In this document: piece by piece, positions 4,835 to 9,984 of the stretch | Numbering within the stretch: the stretch's first letter is position 1 | Layout of the letters: each line of letters starts with the position of its first letter | Virus record (IMG/VR): IMGVR_UViG_2703718842_000003 | DNA: 9,984 nt | From: a virus | Taxonomy: Duplodnaviria; Heunggongvirae; Uroviricota; Caudoviricetes | Direction: 5' to 3' (one strand) | Translations under genes and position numbers: made by a program | The notes under the pieces: model-generated | The model's database searches: none | What the model saw: only the letters and a program-made list of their open reading frames with translations | What the model was told of the DNA's origin: nothing

Positions 4835-5010
4835 GCTGCCACCTCACGAATGCGGGTAATCTGGATGTGGGAAAGGCGTTCATTTCTGGCCTGATTTAGC
4901 GCCTCAGCTTTGGCGCTGATCGCGCTGCGGGCGTCAACGATATAAACGAACTCGACTAATTCGCCGCTCCGGGCGGTGGCGCATCCTGCAACACGGAAGT
5001 AATTAAGCAT
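4831..5010 (-). CDS. Hypothetical small protein (about 59 aa)
   Basis: Six-frame ORF 4831..5100 begins with TTG; internal ATG at 5010 has GGGGG about 6 nt upstream and overlaps the stop of the Ash/Icd frame by 8 nt; its stop overlaps the next start (ATGA at 4831..4834). Confidence 0.45.
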   Translation of the reverse strand: MLNYFRVAGCATARSGELVEFVYIVDARSAISAKAEALNQARNERLSHIQITRIREVAA

Positions 5011-5194
5011 GTGCGCCCCCTGTGCGAATACGTCCGGCAAAAAAGCAGACGTGATCGCGCACCAGAGAACGGCGAGCATCGCGTTCAGACTCGGCAGCAA
5101 TATGATGAATTTTGGCGGTAATTGTCGGCATGTCGCGGCGAACTGCTGCGATAATCCAGATAAATTGCGGTTTTTTGGTAGGGGTAGTAGCCAT
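5003..5194 (-). CDS. Icd-like host cell-division inhibitor family-like small protein (63 aa), nested in-frame in the Ash-like ORF
   Basis: Perfect AGGAGG (plus-strand cctcct 5204..5209) lies 9 nt upstream of ATG at 5194; product MATTPTKKPQFIWIIAAVRRDMPTITAKIHHIAAESERDARRSLVRDHVCFFAGRI matches my recollection of Icd-like proteins of enterobacterial prophages/satellites. Confidence 0.55.
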   Translation of the reverse strand: MATTPTKKPQFIWIIAAVRRDMPTITAKIHHIAAESERDARRSLVRDHVCFFAGRIRTGGAHA

Positions 5195-5332
5195 TATGGC
5201 AGCCTCCTGTAACTGGGATTTATTCCCACCACCGGAAACGCCAATTTCACTGGTGGTGAGCTGAACAGGGTTGGCGTAACCGGCGTTACAGGAAACCGGC
5301 GCGGATCGCTCCGCCCCCATCCAGCCCACCAT
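5003..5332 (-). CDS. Ash-family-like protein (about 109 aa if started at MVGWMG); true start uncertain because the frame stays open up to 5962
   Basis: Segment MVGWMGAERSAPVSCNAGYANPVQLTTSEIGVSGGGNKSQLQEAAIMAT resembles Ash-family N-termini as I recall them; the frame is continuous with the Icd-like reading frame. Weak RBS at 5332; alternative in-frame ATGs at 5728 and 5791. Confidence 0.45.
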   Translation of the reverse strand: MVGWMGAERSAPVSCNAGYANPVQLTTSEIGVSGGGNKSQLQEAAIMATTPTKKPQFIWIIAAVRRDMPTITAKIHHIAAESERDARRSLVRDHVCFFAGRIRTGGAHA

Positions 5333-5764
5333 TACTTTTTGAGCAATATGGGCTATAGCCATATCGCCGGGAAAGAGGTGTGCAGATGCGAGGACACAAA
5401 AAAAGACGCTCGGCGCGTCATGTGTCGCCTGTAACATTATCAGGACGCCAATCCCGGCACCAGATTTTGCTGGCGCGCTATAACCATAAACCGGGTTGGC
5501 GATAGTCGGCAAGCCCTTTTTTATGGACTCCGAATACTCACCTTCTCGCGTAACGACCCCTAAAAAATCTTCCAGCGCACGCGTATTTGTCTCGAAAGTC
5601 GATGTGGAACGGTTCACAACGGTAGCAATCCAGTTCATACCACCAGCTAGCAGAAGGAATTTATTCCCCACAGCCAGCTTTTTTGAGGTTATTTTTTCTT
5701 GGTTTAAAATGTCATCATTTGTCGTCATCCCCCGTGCGTGGATGTCAGGTTTTGACAGGTTCAG

Positions 5765-5861
5765 GCTAAGTTTTGCTAAGTCCTTAGCCATAACAATTGA
5801 TAACAGGTAATCGTTCACAACCTTAGGTTTTATAAGGTTCTGAGGGTTAACATTTGTTAAC
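5765..5861 (-). promoter_or_regulatory. Palindrome-rich AT-rich putative operator region upstream of the Ash/Icd-primase gene block
   Basis: GCTAAG at 5765 and perfect palindrome GCTAAGTCCTTAGC at 5775..5788; TAACA direct repeat flanking CAATTG (5791..5805); palindrome AACCTTAGGTT at 5819..5829; two GTTAAC hexamers 4 bp apart at 5846..5861. No convincing sigma70 -35/-10 pair identified by eye. Confidence 0.3.
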
Positions 5862-5900
5862 AGGCTAGCCAGATTAAAGGCTTCTTTCTGGGCGGCAGGT

Positions 5901-6083
5901 TCATTCAGTATCACGGCGCACCTCCACGAACTCCTTAACGAATCTCTCCAAAGGCTGAACACATGGCGACTGATAGCCCTCGCGGTAAAAGGTCACTCGG
6001 TTATGCTCGACGCGCTGTACGGTCACTACAGCCCCGTGACTGTCCTTGTAACGGCTTCCCGGCATCGGATTATGGTTACGCAT
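5901..6083 (-). CDS. DUF4222-like small protein (60 aa)
   Basis: ATG at 6083 with GGAGGT 5 nt upstream; sequence PGSRYKDSHGAVVTVQRVEHNRVTFYREGYQSPCVQPLERFVKEF resembles DUF4222 proteins common in enterobacterial prophages (recollection). Confidence 0.6.
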   Translation of the reverse strand: MRNHNPMPGSRYKDSHGAVVTVQRVEHNRVTFYREGYQSPCVQPLERFVKEFVEVRRDTE

Positions 6084-6909
6084 GGTTTACCTCCAGACGT
6101 TTAGCGAGCCAGCGTTGCGACAGGCGGGTGAGTTCTCCTTTGCGCTGCTCATATTCCATGCCCATATCAATTAACGTGATATTGGTGCTTTCGAGATAGG
6201 CGAGGTGTTCAAGCTGTGCTGCGTTCATGCTGTCCCGTGGTTCGCCAGTAATGCCATTTGCCTGCGCCCACTGCTTCGCCGTCATGCCACCCAGCACGAT
6301 ACGGGCGATCATGTTGCTCTCGTTGCTGTAGTGGCGCTGCTGCGTCGTTTTCCCCTGCTCGGCACGGGCCATATTCAGCGCATCGCACATTGGCTTAAAG
6401 TTGTTTGCGGCACTGATACGGGCTTTTAGCTGGCGACGATAGCGGGCGGCGATTTCAGGCACGGTACGCTGTAATTCTTCCTCGCACTGGATGAAATAAC
6501 GGCGGATAGCGCGACCCTGATCATTGCGTTCGATCATTGCCAGTTCTTTCGCCATTCCGACACTTAACAGATAGTCTTTGCCGGGTCTGCCAGAGTGCTT
6601 TATCTTGCTGTAAGCCGCGCCATTCGGGCTTTTCCCCAAATTTGGGGAAATTGTTTTATGGACTGAGTAATCGTGCCCAATGGTGAAGTCATATTCAGAG
6701 ATGCGATCAGTGATCCATGTAGAGAAGTCTTTTCCCACGCCCAACGCTTTGTGTAACGCTTTTGCGCTAACAATATTGGTTTCACGCCCACCGATATGAC
6801 CAGGAATAACCGGGACAATTGCGGCAAATTCATTACCGTTAATTGTGCCCTGATAGGCGTTCAGATGAGGGGCGGCCTCAGAAATTAATCTGCTTTTTTC
6901 GATGTTCAT
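6076..6909 (-). CDS. Phage antirepressor-like protein, AntA/KilAC-type (277 aa)
   Basis: ATG at 6909 with GGAG 7 nt upstream; N-terminal NIVSAKALHKALGVGKDFSTWITDRISEYDFTIGHDY matches the AntA/AntB antirepressor N-domain pattern; stop overlaps the DUF4222-like start region by 8 nt. Confidence 0.7.
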   Translation of the reverse strand: MNIEKSRLISEAAPHLNAYQGTINGNEFAAIVPVIPGHIGGRETNIVSAKALHKALGVGKDFSTWITDRISEYDFTIGHDYSVHKTISPNLGKSPNGAAYSKIKHSGRPGKDYLLSVGMAKELAMIERNDQGRAIRRYFIQCEEELQRTVPEIAARYRRQLKARISAANNFKPMCDALNMARAEQGKTTQQRHYSNESNMIARIVLGGMTAKQWAQANGITGEPRDSMNAAQLEHLAYLESTNITLIDMGMEYEQRKGELTRLSQRWLAKRLEVNHA

Positions 6910-6921
6910 TTTCAGTCTCCG

Positions 6922-7356
6922 TTAGGCGGCGGTGAGATTGTCCGGGTATAGATTGAGAATGTCGGCAATTTCAGGCTGAGAAAGTCCCTGATAGCCCCCA
7001 GCGTCGGCGTTATGGTTCACAAGCCGAATAACTTTTAGAACGTCACCGCGCCCGGTAAAGCGATAGCGTAAATGTGACCCGATCCCGTCGGGATTCTTTT
7101 CGTCGATACGCTCTAACTGAATATCAAGCCTGCGTTCTAACTCGCTGGCGTAGTTCCTTCCAGACGAAAGGCGGCAGTAGCGCAGAATGTCGTTTTCTGT
7201 CCATCCCTCTACCCCAGTGCGTAGCATATAGACGCGGGCGCGGTGCTTCTTCGGTGTGCGGCGTGGCGCTTGTGTGGTGGGCGCTGGTGGCGTAACATCA
7301 GATCCGCGAATATCTATGTTAGCCGCCTGCTGTCCGGGGCGGTTTTCTTTTTTCAT
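6922..7356 (-). CDS. Hypothetical protein (144 aa) with a basic, proline-rich N-terminus
   Basis: Start ATG shares one nucleotide with the alpA stop (TGATG, plus-strand catca at 7354..7358), so it is translationally coupled to alpA; no motif assigned. Confidence 0.6.
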   Translation of the reverse strand: MKKENRPGQQAANIDIRGSDVTPPAPTTQAPRRTPKKHRARVYMLRTGVEGWTENDILRYCRLSSGRNYASELERRLDIQLERIDEKNPDGIGSHLRYRFTGRGDVLKVIRLVNHNADAGGYQGLSQPEIADILNLYPDNLTAA

Positions 7357-7574
7357 CAGGCCACCTTCCCGCGACGCTCTGCCAGCCAGTTGTTAATCTC
7401 TACCGCATCAAAGGCGGTAATCTTCTCGCCCAGCTTTACCGGGCGCGGCAGAACCCCATTGCGAACTTTGCGATCAATGGTGGAAACGCTAACGCCCAGC
7501 AATTCAGCAAGGCGGAAGCGTCGGATATAGCCAGATTGGGGGATTGTGTGGGTTGTTGCGTTATGTGTTGCCAT
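7356..7574 (-). CDS. alpA: AlpA / excisionase-family HTH regulator (72 aa)
   Basis: ATG at 7574; core RLAELLGVSVSTIDRKVRNGVLPRPVKLGEKITAFDAVEINNWL follows the AlpA/Xis-type winged-HTH pattern (HTH, then G.FP.P.klG, then a conserved W). Confidence 0.8.
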   Translation of the reverse strand: MATHNATTHTIPQSGYIRRFRLAELLGVSVSTIDRKVRNGVLPRPVKLGEKITAFDAVEINNWLAERRGKVA

Positions 7575-7685
7575 ATGTCCCGTAACCTCTTTTGATGGTT
7601 GTTGCTTCGTTACGGGTATGATGGGAGCAATAGATTGTAATGTATCGGAATTATTAGAAAACTCCCCGGAATTTTCATAATTCCG
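7575..7685 (-). promoter_or_regulatory. alpA leader/operator region with inverted and direct repeats
   Basis: Inverted repeat CCCGTAAC (7579..7586) / GTTACGGG (7609..7616) bracketing the alpA SD (cctc 7586..7589). CGGAATT direct repeats at 7646 and 7667 (21 bp apart) plus inverted copy ATAATTCCG at 7677..7685. Minus-strand TACAAT (-10-like) at 7639..7634. Confidence 0.4.
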
Positions 7686-8609
7686 TTATCGGTTGACTCC
7701 CCCTTTTCGCAGCCAATCTATAAGCGTCTTATCATCATCCGGGAGTGGTAGCTCCTCACCTTTATTGTTAGCTTTATTTCTCAGTTGTGTAATGCTGCCT
7801 TTTAAATCACTATCGGTTAAGCCTATACGTTTAAGTAATGCGACAATTAGTCTCATCTGTTTTTCTGTTGTTTTTACTGGTTTTCCTACATTCATTTCCG
7901 TCGGCGGTAAGGGAATAACACCTCCGTTAATCATGCTTTTAATCGGCTCGCCTGTGTCTATTGCGTCTTTGAGTTTTAAAATGGTATCTCTGGCAATAAA
8001 TAGATCGGAAGTTGTCAAAGTCTCATTAAGCGCAGGTTTTCGGCTCTCACTTAACTGAAACCCTATGCTTTCGGTTAGTTGTCTGTTTAGCGTAGGTAGC
8101 CAGCTCTGATTAAAATATCTATCGCTAATTATCTGACACGAAAGGCCAGTCTTCTCGCGGAAAGTGTCCCATCCGAACGGCCTGAAAATTGTCGTGTCTA
8201 TCACCCTTGCCCTCTTAGAATAAAGAAGACTTTCTATTTCACTGTGTCCCAGACACCATAGCCCGTTCGCCAATCCTCTAAATAAAATAAGCCCACTATC
8301 TGTTTTGTATGCGTCATGTTCGGTGAGCGTGGAATTAAAATGAGATATATAGTTGCCCTCACGAAAAAGAAATGATGAGTTTCCTTTGTGTTCGTGATAA
8401 AACTCAATTGGGTCTTTTATATCTTTACCGCCTATAAAAGCCAAAGTAGAAGAAAATCCTCTCATCATTATACACAACGGTATAGCCCCAATAACTCCAT
8501 AGTGAAGTAAATCATCTGTATCGCATTGCAAAATACTAGCTGCCCTGTCGAGCTTAAAGTATTCCATAGGTGGGATTTTAATACTGCTGTGGGCTTCTTT
8601 TTTGGTCAT
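7686..8609 (-). CDS. Orphan hypothetical protein (about 307 aa from ATG 8609; 312 aa if GTG 8624), AT-rich cargo-like gene between int and alpA
   Basis: Long ORF with AGGTG 5 nt upstream of ATG 8609; sampled 60-nt lines are roughly 35-40% GC versus roughly 55-70% in int and primase (hand counts); no family motif recognised. Confidence 0.7.
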   Translation of the reverse strand: MTKKEAHSSIKIPPMEYFKLDRAASILQCDTDDLLHYGVIGAIPLCIMMRGFSSTLAFIGGKDIKDPIEFYHEHKGNSSFLFREGNYISHFNSTLTEHDAYKTDSGLILFRGLANGLWCLGHSEIESLLYSKRARVIDTTIFRPFGWDTFREKTGLSCQIISDRYFNQSWLPTLNRQLTESIGFQLSESRKPALNETLTTSDLFIARDTILKLKDAIDTGEPIKSMINGGVIPLPPTEMNVGKPVKTTEKQMRLIVALLKRIGLTDSDLKGSITQLRNKANNKGEELPLPDDDKTLIDWLRKGGVNR

Positions 8610-8641
8610 CGCGTCACCTTTCACGCTGTGCCTTAAAGAGT

Positions 8642-8697
8642 GATTGAGCCAGGCGGTAAGGCTTCCCGCTTTTCGCCCCGTCGGGCTAGGCTCAATC
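8642..8697 (-). other. Compound hairpin in the int / cargo-gene intergenic region
   Basis: 9-bp inverted repeat GATTGAGCC (8642..8650) / GGCTCAATC (8689..8697) enclosing a GC-rich inner palindrome (GCCCCGTCGGGC, CCCG..CGGG); no clear U-tract on the minus-strand transcript. Confidence 0.35.
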
Positions 8698-8724: not shown

Positions 8725-9984
8725 TTACTTCGCCTTTCTCAGCGGTGTAACGTTGTACTCTTCGCCGCGCTCCAGTGCCACCAGCAATCCCGCCCACTGT
8801 GTTAACGCGGCCCGGCGTTCATCAAAGTATTGGTGGCGGTTATAGATACCCTCCACGCCTTTAATTTTGTGGTTAAGGCATCTTTCTGCGACTACAGGAT
8901 CAACGCCCAGCGCGGCTAAATGGGTGCGGGCCGTGCGCCGGAAGTCGTGAATAGTGAAATTCGGCACGTCCGGCATTTCAGCGCGAACCTTCGCCAGCGC
9001 AACGGGCAGGGTGCTTTCCTGAATATGGGGGATCATGCGGTTTTGCATCTTTCTGGCTGGCAGTACCCATGCGCTGTTGCATGAGAACGTTTTAAGCTCT
9101 CTCAGCCATTCGACTGCTGGCGGTGCTAATGGAATGTCTATAGCGTCGCCGTTTTTGCTGCGTTCCTCTGGCAAGCGCCATACGGCTTTATCAAGATCGA
9201 ACTCCTCCCAGCGGGCGGCGCATAACTCCATTTTGCGGACGCATAACGCTAACAGTAATTTGAACGTGATTTCATTCTGGCGACTGAAACCCTTAGCCGT
9301 GCGCATGGCTTTGAATAGCTGGATTAACTCATCGCGTGTTAGCCAGCGGTCGCGGCTAACCTCCTTCCCTCCAGCGTCTGCCACCTCAAAGGCTGAACAG
9401 GGGTTAATCTCCAGCGCGTGCCGTTTGATTCCGTAGTCGAATATGCGGCGCGTCCATCTCAGCACGTCCGTTGCTATGGTCGGCGCTCCACGGTCAACAA
9501 TACCTTTCAGCATGTCGTCGATATGGCGCGGCTTCACGTCCTCTACCTTCATGCTGCCAATGCAGGGGTTTATATCTTTGTCGATACGGCGGCGGAGTAT
9601 ATCGGGGTGCTTCCAGCGGGGCAGTATCTGACGTTCAAAGTATTCAGCGGCAAGCTCTGAAACGCGCATGGCGTTTTTTTCTGCTTCCATCTTCGCTAGT
9701 GCTTCGGATTTCCGCTCCTGCTTCTCCCCGGCAACGTCATAACCCAGCGCAACACGCGCCGAAAGCTCCTTTGCTGTCTCTCTGGCCTTTGATAGTGATA
9801 GCTCGCTATACGAACCAATTAGCATTGCGCGGGACTTCCCTGCGAGTTTATAGCGGAATCTCCATGTGGGGGTTTTGTCGGCTTCACGGTAACGCAGGTA
9901 TAAGCCGTTCCCGTCCGCCCGTCCCTCGAATCGCTCTCCGGCCTTTATCCACGCGCGGATCTGCATGTCTGTGAGTTTTGGCAT
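8725..9984 (-). CDS. int: Tyrosine site-specific integrase, P4-type (419 aa)
   Basis: ATG at 9984 (window edge, upstream signals not visible); catalytic-region motifs HDFRRTARTHLA (HxxR) and GIYNRHQY (tyrosine nucleophile context); N-terminal arm-binding-type domain typical of P4-family integrases. Confidence 0.9.
   Translation of the reverse strand: MPKLTDMQIRAWIKAGERFEGRADGNGLYLRYREADKTPTWRFRYKLAGKSRAMLIGSYSELSLSKARETAKELSARVALGYDVAGEKQERKSEALAKMEAEKNAMRVSELAAEYFERQILPRWKHPDILRRRIDKDINPCIGSMKVEDVKPRHIDDMLKGIVDRGAPTIATDVLRWTRRIFDYGIKRHALEINPCSAFEVADAGGKEVSRDRWLTRDELIQLFKAMRTAKGFSRQNEITFKLLLALCVRKMELCAARWEEFDLDKAVWRLPEERSKNGDAIDIPLAPPAVEWLRELKTFSCNSAWVLPARKMQNRMIPHIQESTLPVALAKVRAEMPDVPNFTIHDFRRTARTHLAALGVDPVVAERCLNHKIKGVEGIYNRHQYFDERRAALTQWAGLLVALERGEEYNVTPLRKAK

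Follow-up and report, generated by a model that had tools for sequence, protein, structure and literature searches.

We describe here a gene located between the integrase gene int and the regulator gene alpA on a 9,984 nt stretch of viral DNA (Caudoviricetes; IMG/VR record IMGVR_UViG_2703718842_000003), which as a whole is referred to as the window. The gene is AT-rich and is labelled X in this report. X encodes a modular, hypervariable helix-turn-helix (HTH) protein that is syntenic with int and alpA, has the appearance of an expressed gene, is specific to satellites and is coupled to a conserved leader RNA. We suggest, with a probability of about 40%, that X is the fixed but hypervariable part of an integration and regulation module consisting of int, int-alpA RNA, X and alpA, and that it serves as a phage-specificity sensor or regulator in widespread satellites of the type of the Gram-negative phage-inducible chromosomal islands (PICIs). 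The sensing of helper phages by Gram-negative PICIs has been openly named as a gap in the field. The module, with its integrase, structured RNA, hypervariable HTH protein and alpA, is compact and tractable, and it is widespread in Enterobacterales and Aeromonas. It also comes with a natural allele series at one chromosomal site and with natural domain swaps. The allele series would be a ready specificity panel, whether X is a sensor-regulator or a new single-gene defence.

Synteny, variability and exchange of X

Hidden Markov models (HMMs) for int, X and alpA were run over the six-frame open reading frames (ORFs) of each fetched locus. In each of the 20 loci taken from genomes and IMG/VR (E. 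coli, Pectobacterium, Lonsdalea, Scandinavium, Rahnella, Aeromonas and ten IMG/VR contigs), the three genes lie tightly spaced on one strand in the order int, X, alpA. The same order is found in another seven loci, L023-L028 (Klebsiella, Dickeya, E. coli) and L001, which together with the window gives 28 of 28 loci from 8 or more genera plus IMG/VR. X alone occupies the int-alpA slot in all 28. The X-bearing islands vary in other respects: the integrase is 404-455 aa long, the attachment (att) site is yicC, a tRNA or der, and the replication protein is of the DUF927, D5_N/DUF5906 or another type. In the experimentally studied island EcCICFT073, int and alpA are separated by 365 bp that contain no gene.

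The initial annotation took X for an orphan cargo gene acquired apart from the island backbone. By its own criterion, the conserved and syntenic position of X in 28 loci refutes this view. The host-typical composition that it also expected of relatives in that case was not found, as these are AT-rich too. Alignment of the int-alpA interval across islands, which the annotation proposed, revealed that the sequence of X is hypervariable but that the slot is not a mixed-cargo hotspot.

Two genes from the corresponding slot of other islands were considered as relatives of X. YfjH, from the intA-alpA slot of CP4-57 in E. coli K-12, was rejected as a homologue (hhalign probability 1%; opposite strand). 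EcCIMP1_002, from the int-alpA slot of a studied PICI, is described as a far smaller protein and is, compared by this description, unlikely to be X. It should be noted that int, X and alpA of locus L006, whose assembly carries the label Chryseobacterium sp. 18061, have the coordinates of those in the Rahnella locus L007, and that the alpA HMM score is identical as well. This locus is probably contamination or a mis-binned contig.

A word-indexed search gave 51 relatives of X in Klebsiella, E. coli, Citrobacter, Raoultella, Enterobacter, Dickeya and Lonsdalea, all annotated as hypothetical and without a Pfam domain. A profile search of 1.84 billion representatives gave 434 X-family proteins at E <= 1e-3 and 114 at E <= 1e-10. 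The former are family representatives at 50% identity, mostly of 270-340 aa, and the family thus has at least 434 of them, which is not compatible with X being an orphan. A scan of genome contigs gave only six loci. Repeating the homologue search with the diverse alignment gave almost no new members. A tblastn search with three X alleles against 50,697 phage genomes gave no match, indicating that the X family belongs to satellites.

We did not find a match for X in Pfam at E <= 0.1, nor for 41 diverse family members, and NCBIfam gave no match for X and has no model of the family. One of the 41 members matches TIGR01764 'excise' at 1.6e-4. The initial annotation had proposed a search for known defence systems; no model of PADLOC-DB v2 matches X of the window, and the 41 members gave just three single-member matches, with E 0.004-0.007. 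The isolated C-terminal and central fragments gave nothing usable against Pfam, NCBIfam, PADLOC and PHROGs, and a sequence-profile search of the PDB with X gave nothing. The only related PHROGs family is phrog_7144, which has no functional annotation. Its profile is of similar length (313 positions) and is matched by 3 of the 41 members, with a best E of 2.5e-6, whereas X of the window matches it weakly over the HTH at E 0.036, below significance. No ATPase, reverse transcriptase or nuclease family was detected in X by the domain-library searches, in agreement with the lack of a Walker A, reverse transcriptase or nuclease signature noted in the initial annotation. We found no publication on the X family or on its link to the int-alpA RNA in the literature covered, which does not include the Cell 2022 paper on PICI immunity.

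The frame of X is open at 7686..8624 on the minus strand, corresponding to 312 aa if counted from a GTG. The true start is almost certainly the ATG at position 8609, giving 307 aa. RefSeq annotates a 924 bp coding sequence (CDS) for X in E. coli D5, whose island is 99.9% identical, alignments of X homologues begin at the Met of this ATG, and a conserved Shine-Dalgarno (SD) hairpin followed by the ATG is found upstream of X in 11 aligned loci. X is thus the real, AT-rich and unannotated ORF that it was first taken to be.

X has a GC content of 0.40 and a GC content at third codon positions (GC3) of 0.37, compared with GC contents of 0.55 for int, 0.55 for alpA and 0.51 for antA. In windows of 300 nt, GC is 0.39-0.43 at 7651-8550 and 0.51-0.62 in most of the stretch. 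The contrast in composition is therefore as first described, but the flanks are nearer to 50-62% GC than to the 55-70% reported then. Further AT-rich dips occur at approximately 900-1350 and 5550-5850, and neither corresponds to a large gene. All X alleles checked have GC contents of 0.34-0.44. Low GC is therefore a trait of the family and not a mark of recent capture by this island.

Sister islands at the yicC site of E. coli share with the window 88-94% amino acid identity in int, 59-98% in antA, 64-85% in alpA and 19-27% in X. Pairwise BLAST and the family HMM identify their X copies as still homologous to X of the window. In DNA alignments, the similarity ends exactly at the ATG of X and returns approximately 45 nt before the ATG of alpA. 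The conserved int-X spacer was found in 169 of the 5,426 complete genomes of E. coli. The alleles fall into at least three discrete types: the window type in 33 genomes, the UMNK88 type in 76 and the CT29 type in 37. Copies of the window type are, save one, at least 99% identical, and those of the UMNK88 and CT29 types are at least 95% identical within their type, save one record.

The ratio of nonsynonymous to synonymous substitution rates (dN/dS) is 0.25-0.54 for X, below 1 in all pairs, and 0.03-0.15 for int. These values identify X as a functional coding gene and, as judged from the alignments, it is under purifying but relaxed selection. Locus L026 from K. variicola differs from the window in the opposite manner to the sister islands: int is 66% identical (dS 1.77), X 80% (dS 0.23) and alpA 94%. 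X and alpA have thus moved together between islands that differ in integrase and att site, in L026 and also in L027 (Dickeya). Among otherwise identical Klebsiella islands, the primase types differ as well, between L023 and L025 on the one hand and L024 on the other.

Architecture of X and the flanking RNA structures

AlphaFold2 (AF2) modelling of X with 13 close sequences gave a mean confidence (pLDDT) of 65. With 116 diverse members, the pLDDT rose to 88.3 and the predicted template modelling score (pTM) was 0.73. A confident model from a diverse alignment indicates that the divergent alleles share one fold. The coordinates of the three parts of the protein, and those of the neighbouring genes and structures, are given in Table 1.

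The N-terminal part is predicted to form a beta-alpha-alpha-beta winged HTH. The initial annotation saw a loose resemblance to an excisionase or AlpA-type HTH here, and the predicted structure confirms it. The structure resembles Pukovnik Xis, the AlpA-family Xis of GIsul2, RdfS and Tn916 Xis. X does not reach the gathering scores of PF12728 (HTH_17), PF05930 (Phage_AlpA), PF00376 and PF13411 (MerR), and it is four to five times larger than the small regulators AlpA, Vis and the excisionases, with two domains that these do not have.

The resemblance raises the question of whether X is an enlarged excisionase, that is a recombination directionality or architectural factor that assists int by binding the arm sites of att through its Xis-like HTH. 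Besides the fold, the match of one family member to TIGR01764 and the position of X directly after int in the 'integration zone' (PMC10111431) are in favour of this role. The protein is, however, approximately 300 aa long and thereby unlike known directionality factors, and an Xis-like function is already supplied by alpA (PMC6092414, PMC11773190). X also does not co-vary with int: integrases that are 88-94% identical are paired with X proteins that are 19-27% identical, and an integrase of 66% identity is paired with an X of 80%. We therefore consider this role improbable.

The central part is rich in beta strands. This domain has no convincing PDB match in the structure libraries searched, and Foldseek against BFVD gave nothing under E 0.07. 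The only positions conserved in at least 90% of the members are HTH residues and the G-L-W motif (G116, W118). Family conservation and the domain searches revealed no conserved catalytic residues and no enzyme domain.

The C-terminal part consists, in the AF2 model, of a low-confidence linker at approximately residues 220-248 and a four-helix module at 249-302. At least three unrelated-looking flavours of this module occur on N-terminal bodies that are otherwise 72-96% identical. For example, the C terminus of L027 and L028 is 19-30% identical and the rest 78-96% by per-segment identity. Conversely, X from Lonsdalea carries the C-terminal flavour of the window on a body that is only 27% identical. 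These comparisons show that the C-terminal module is swapped between alleles.

The gene is preceded by a hairpin at 8642..8697 with perfect arms of 9 nt, and the three-way-junction fold has a z-score of -2.5. A cmscan search identified the element as int-alpA RNA (64.9 bits; gathering score 35.8), with model positions 1-71 of 71 covered. RF02996 is found at gathering score before X in 11 of 14 X-bearing loci scanned. Our own covariance model, built from 11 instances and including the SD hairpin and the ATG, finds the element immediately before X in 22 of the 24 loci that carry X. It gave no match in the two islands without X that were searched, EcCICFT073 and CP4-57, and RF02996 is likewise absent from EcCICFT073. 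Compensatory changes are seen in 12 of 20 pairs, and the G-U pairs fit only the sense strand of int and X. The element ends 14-20 nt before the start codon of X (window; L002, L004-L010, L013-L021, L023, L026-L028).

The Rfam entry describes a small RNA (sRNA) gene named for int and alpA. Since RF02996 consistently lies just before X and does not occur in the islands without X, this orphan motif behaves in practice as the leader of X and not as an element of int or alpA, and it thereby gains a protein partner and a genomic logic. The SD hairpin that follows it corresponds to columns 76-92 of an RNAalifold alignment of 11 sequences, and one of its pairs is changed on both sides in 3 sequences.

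Downstream of X, the motif CGGAATT occurs in exactly three copies in the window, all inside 7646..7685. The count by itself is not significant, as 50 of 200 shuffles reach three copies, but the clustering together with the fold is (z = -3.97; 0 of 200 shuffles). In Klebsiella, the 55 nt that follow the stop codon of X are 100% identical and the protein only 91%. Other X alleles have unrelated hairpins in this place, at least two of which have T-runs like those of intrinsic terminators. The CGGAATT hairpin is also replaced when the C-terminal module alone is swapped, and it thus tracks this module and not the N-terminal HTH. We conclude that it is a 3' element of the cassette, and an operator bound by the HTH of X is ruled out. 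A binding site for AlpA is unlikely, as the cluster is absent from islands with an 83-85% identical AlpA. The hairpin may be a terminator-like structure that marks the transcript end and insulates alpA.

The initial annotation described X as bracketed by structured repeats. Both hairpins are real, but they do not form one system, the upstream one being RF02996 and the other, downstream of X, going with the C-terminal module when this is swapped. A third hairpin marks where the variable cassette ends downstream. It is conserved in E. coli, Klebsiella, Dickeya and Pectobacterium, and in Pectobacterium a C-G pair has changed to A-T in a compensatory manner. It may control the translation of alpA.

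The flanking RNA structures are much better conserved than the ORF, which is moreover AT-rich. This would fit a locus in which the RNA elements matter and X has no role at the protein level, its ORF being a fast-decaying spacer or a remnant silenced by H-NS. We find this very improbable. The ORF is intact, with approximately 280-340 aa, in hundreds of divergent members, dN/dS stays below 1, the diverse alignment yields a confident common fold (pLDDT 88), and a conserved SD hairpin precedes the ATG.

Table 1. Gene X, its parts, and the genes and structures next to it in the window
Feature	Position	Strand	Description
int	8725..9984	-	P4-type tyrosine integrase, upstream partner in the module; Pfam Arm-DNA-bind_3, Phage_int_M and Phage_integrase; yicC adjoins the island
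int-alpA RNA (Rfam RF02996)	8630..8696	-	Three-way junction; lies between the stop codon of int and the ATG of X, 20 nt from the latter
SD hairpin GCGT/ACGC	8611..8626	-	Shine-Dalgarno AAGGTG of X in the loop, directly before the ATG at 8609
Gene X	7686..8609	-	307 aa from ATG; hypervariable member of the int-X-alpA module; unnamed satellite-specific family
X, winged HTH (codons 14-46)	8472..8570	-	Predicted MerR/excisionase/AlpA type; best conserved block of the family; R22, A23, L27, C29 and D33 nearly invariant
X, central domain (codons 47-232)	7914..8471	-	Beta-rich; invariant G116-L-W118; conserved strand-helix block (LTTSDLFIARDTILKLKDAI); 'P..INGG' linker
X, C-terminal part (codons 236-307)	7689..7904	-	Flexible linker and four-helix module
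CGGAATT / AATTCCG hairpin	7643..7688	-	Starts at the stop codon of X; allele-linked 3' element
Hairpin CCCGTAAC-N22-GTTACGGG	7579..7616	-	Encloses the Shine-Dalgarno of alpA; downstream edge of the variable cassette
alpA	7356..7574	-	AlpA/HTH_17 regulator, downstream partner in the module; Pfam PF05930, 5.6e-8

A putative phage-specificity sensor or regulator

We suggest that X senses particular phages and regulates the island. In a quiescent island, X would be made from an int-X transcript that is insulated from alpA. The conserved HTH would anchor X at a conserved nucleic acid site of the island, for which the leader region is the obvious candidate. The variable body and the C-terminal module would recognise proteins of particular phages. 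In this way X would link infection by a phage to the island cycle that alpA drives, following the logic of Stl from the pathogenicity islands of Staphylococcus aureus (SaPIs).

In Stl of SaPIs and Rpr of Gram-positive PICIs, a variable domain binds a phage protein (PMC6092414, PMC6695447), and the logic we propose for X is the same. Like these proteins, X adjoins int in a phage satellite and has an N-terminal HTH followed by variable domains, and its alleles are modular and extremely divergent among related islands. Stl represses until a helper protein binds to it, whereas for X both repression and binding of a phage protein are proposed by analogy. X has no sequence or fold match to known Stl proteins. 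Stl has an HTH of the lambda-CI/XRE type, whereas that of X is of the MerR/Xis type.

A more far-reaching version, which we regard as doubtful, is that, in a large class of Gram-negative satellites, X and its int-alpA RNA leader form the phage-sensing switch that has been missing. Each allele would then read a different phage protein with its variable body and swappable C-terminal module, and the HTH, possibly via the leader RNA or DNA of X itself, would gate the induction of alpA or block the phage. In that case RF02996 would be a cis-regulatory partner of X and not a free sRNA.

Several observations weigh against a sensor or regulator. EcCICFT073 is helper-inducible through alpA and yet has no X between int and alpA, from which it follows that X is not a general requirement for induction. 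Some helper-inducible Gram-negative PICIs thus depart from the Stl/Rpr pattern by being without X. The islands already carry RNA immunity of the P4 type in the form of C4 and isrK (PMC10111431). X and alpA are co-oriented in all 28 loci, whereas Stl is transcribed divergently from the operon that it represses. As the allele-specific 3' repeat goes with the C-terminal module, it is not an operator of X, and the binding of nucleic acid by X is a prediction. Finally, hypervariability, low GC and raised dN/dS are just as compatible with a defence gene.

Direct interference with the phage could indeed be the output of X, and this is the main rival to a regulator. X would then be a stand-alone anti-phage protein in the 5' region of a PICI, acting by abortive infection, superinfection exclusion or helper interference. 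A phage component would be bound and blocked by the variable domains, and the HTH would serve autoregulation or the binding of phage DNA. We consider this possible, yet somewhat less probable than a sensor or regulator.

The Penades group has reported that immune systems are located at the 5' or 3' ends of PICIs (Fillol-Salom 2022, as cited in PMC11364771), and X is integrase-proximal, as the initial annotation pointed out in proposing a defence gene. X is also AT-rich, highly variable and horizontally exchanged, like the defence cargo of satellites (the 5' and 3' immune regions of PICIs, Tai and the psu-int hotspot of P4). Its alleles are discrete and very divergent, its dN/dS is higher than that of int, and it moves between backbones. 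The 3' hairpin of its own suggests expression in the uninduced state. A satellite protein can be a defence without having an enzyme domain, for example Tai (PMC11364771).

Other features are difficult to reconcile with defence cargo. Hotspots of such cargo hold many unrelated systems, whereas here one homologous family fills the slot in 28 of 28 X-bearing islands. X of the window has no match among the defence HMMs of PADLOC, the 41 diverse members add only the three single-member matches mentioned above, and no effector, toxin or enzyme domain was found in X. The best conserved part of the protein is its predicted DNA-binding domain, and the structured leader is conserved as well, both of which are more typical of a regulator. 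A sensor-regulator and a defence protein would have allele-specific phage recognition in common and differ in their output. It may also be that none of the four readings considered here is right.

The carrier island

The window is part of an island of approximately 13 kb, which in E. coli D5 (L001) lies between yicC and a duplicated dinD. In the direction of transcription, the island encodes a P4-type int, X, alpA, a 144-aa ORF, AntA, DUF4222 and Ash/Icd. These are followed by small ORFs, a TOPRIM-DUF927 primase, SSB and PerC, and structural genes are absent from L001. The features by which Gram-negative PICIs are recognised were found: int, alpA and the primase are co-directional, the size lies within the range of about 10-15 kb that we used, structural and lysis genes are lacking, and the att site is specific. 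A four-zone layout has been described for Gram-negative PICIs (PMC10111431), and, judged by its genes, the island has this layout. Related loci were found in viral contigs of IMG/VR, which may be provirus calls.

A C4 antisense RNA (76.9 bits) and an isrK RNA (72.2 bits) are located at 5249-5336 and 5399-5476, respectively, both on the minus strand and inside the long Ash/Icd ORF. C4 and isrK are relatives of the CI/seqA immunity RNAs of P4 (PMC10111431). The pair was found again in six related loci (L002, L008, L009, L013, L017 and L021). The ORF in which they lie, 319 aa from a GTG start at 5003-5962 on the minus strand, is probably over-called. The identical island has a 726-bp Icd-like CDS in RefSeq, the matches to Ash and Icd are limited to residues 160-314, and both the RNA genes and an AT-rich dip overlap the part upstream of these.

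Between SSB and the primase lies an AT-rich gap, at 887-1148, in which the iteron TGTTGTCTCA occurs seven times in direct and three times in inverted orientation. This gap is probably the replication origin of the island. The AntA/AntB protein is encoded at 6076-6909 on the minus strand. Its C-terminal half matches the PADLOC candidate model PDC-S22 with an E of 5.5e-11, which is the only notable match to a defence database in the window.

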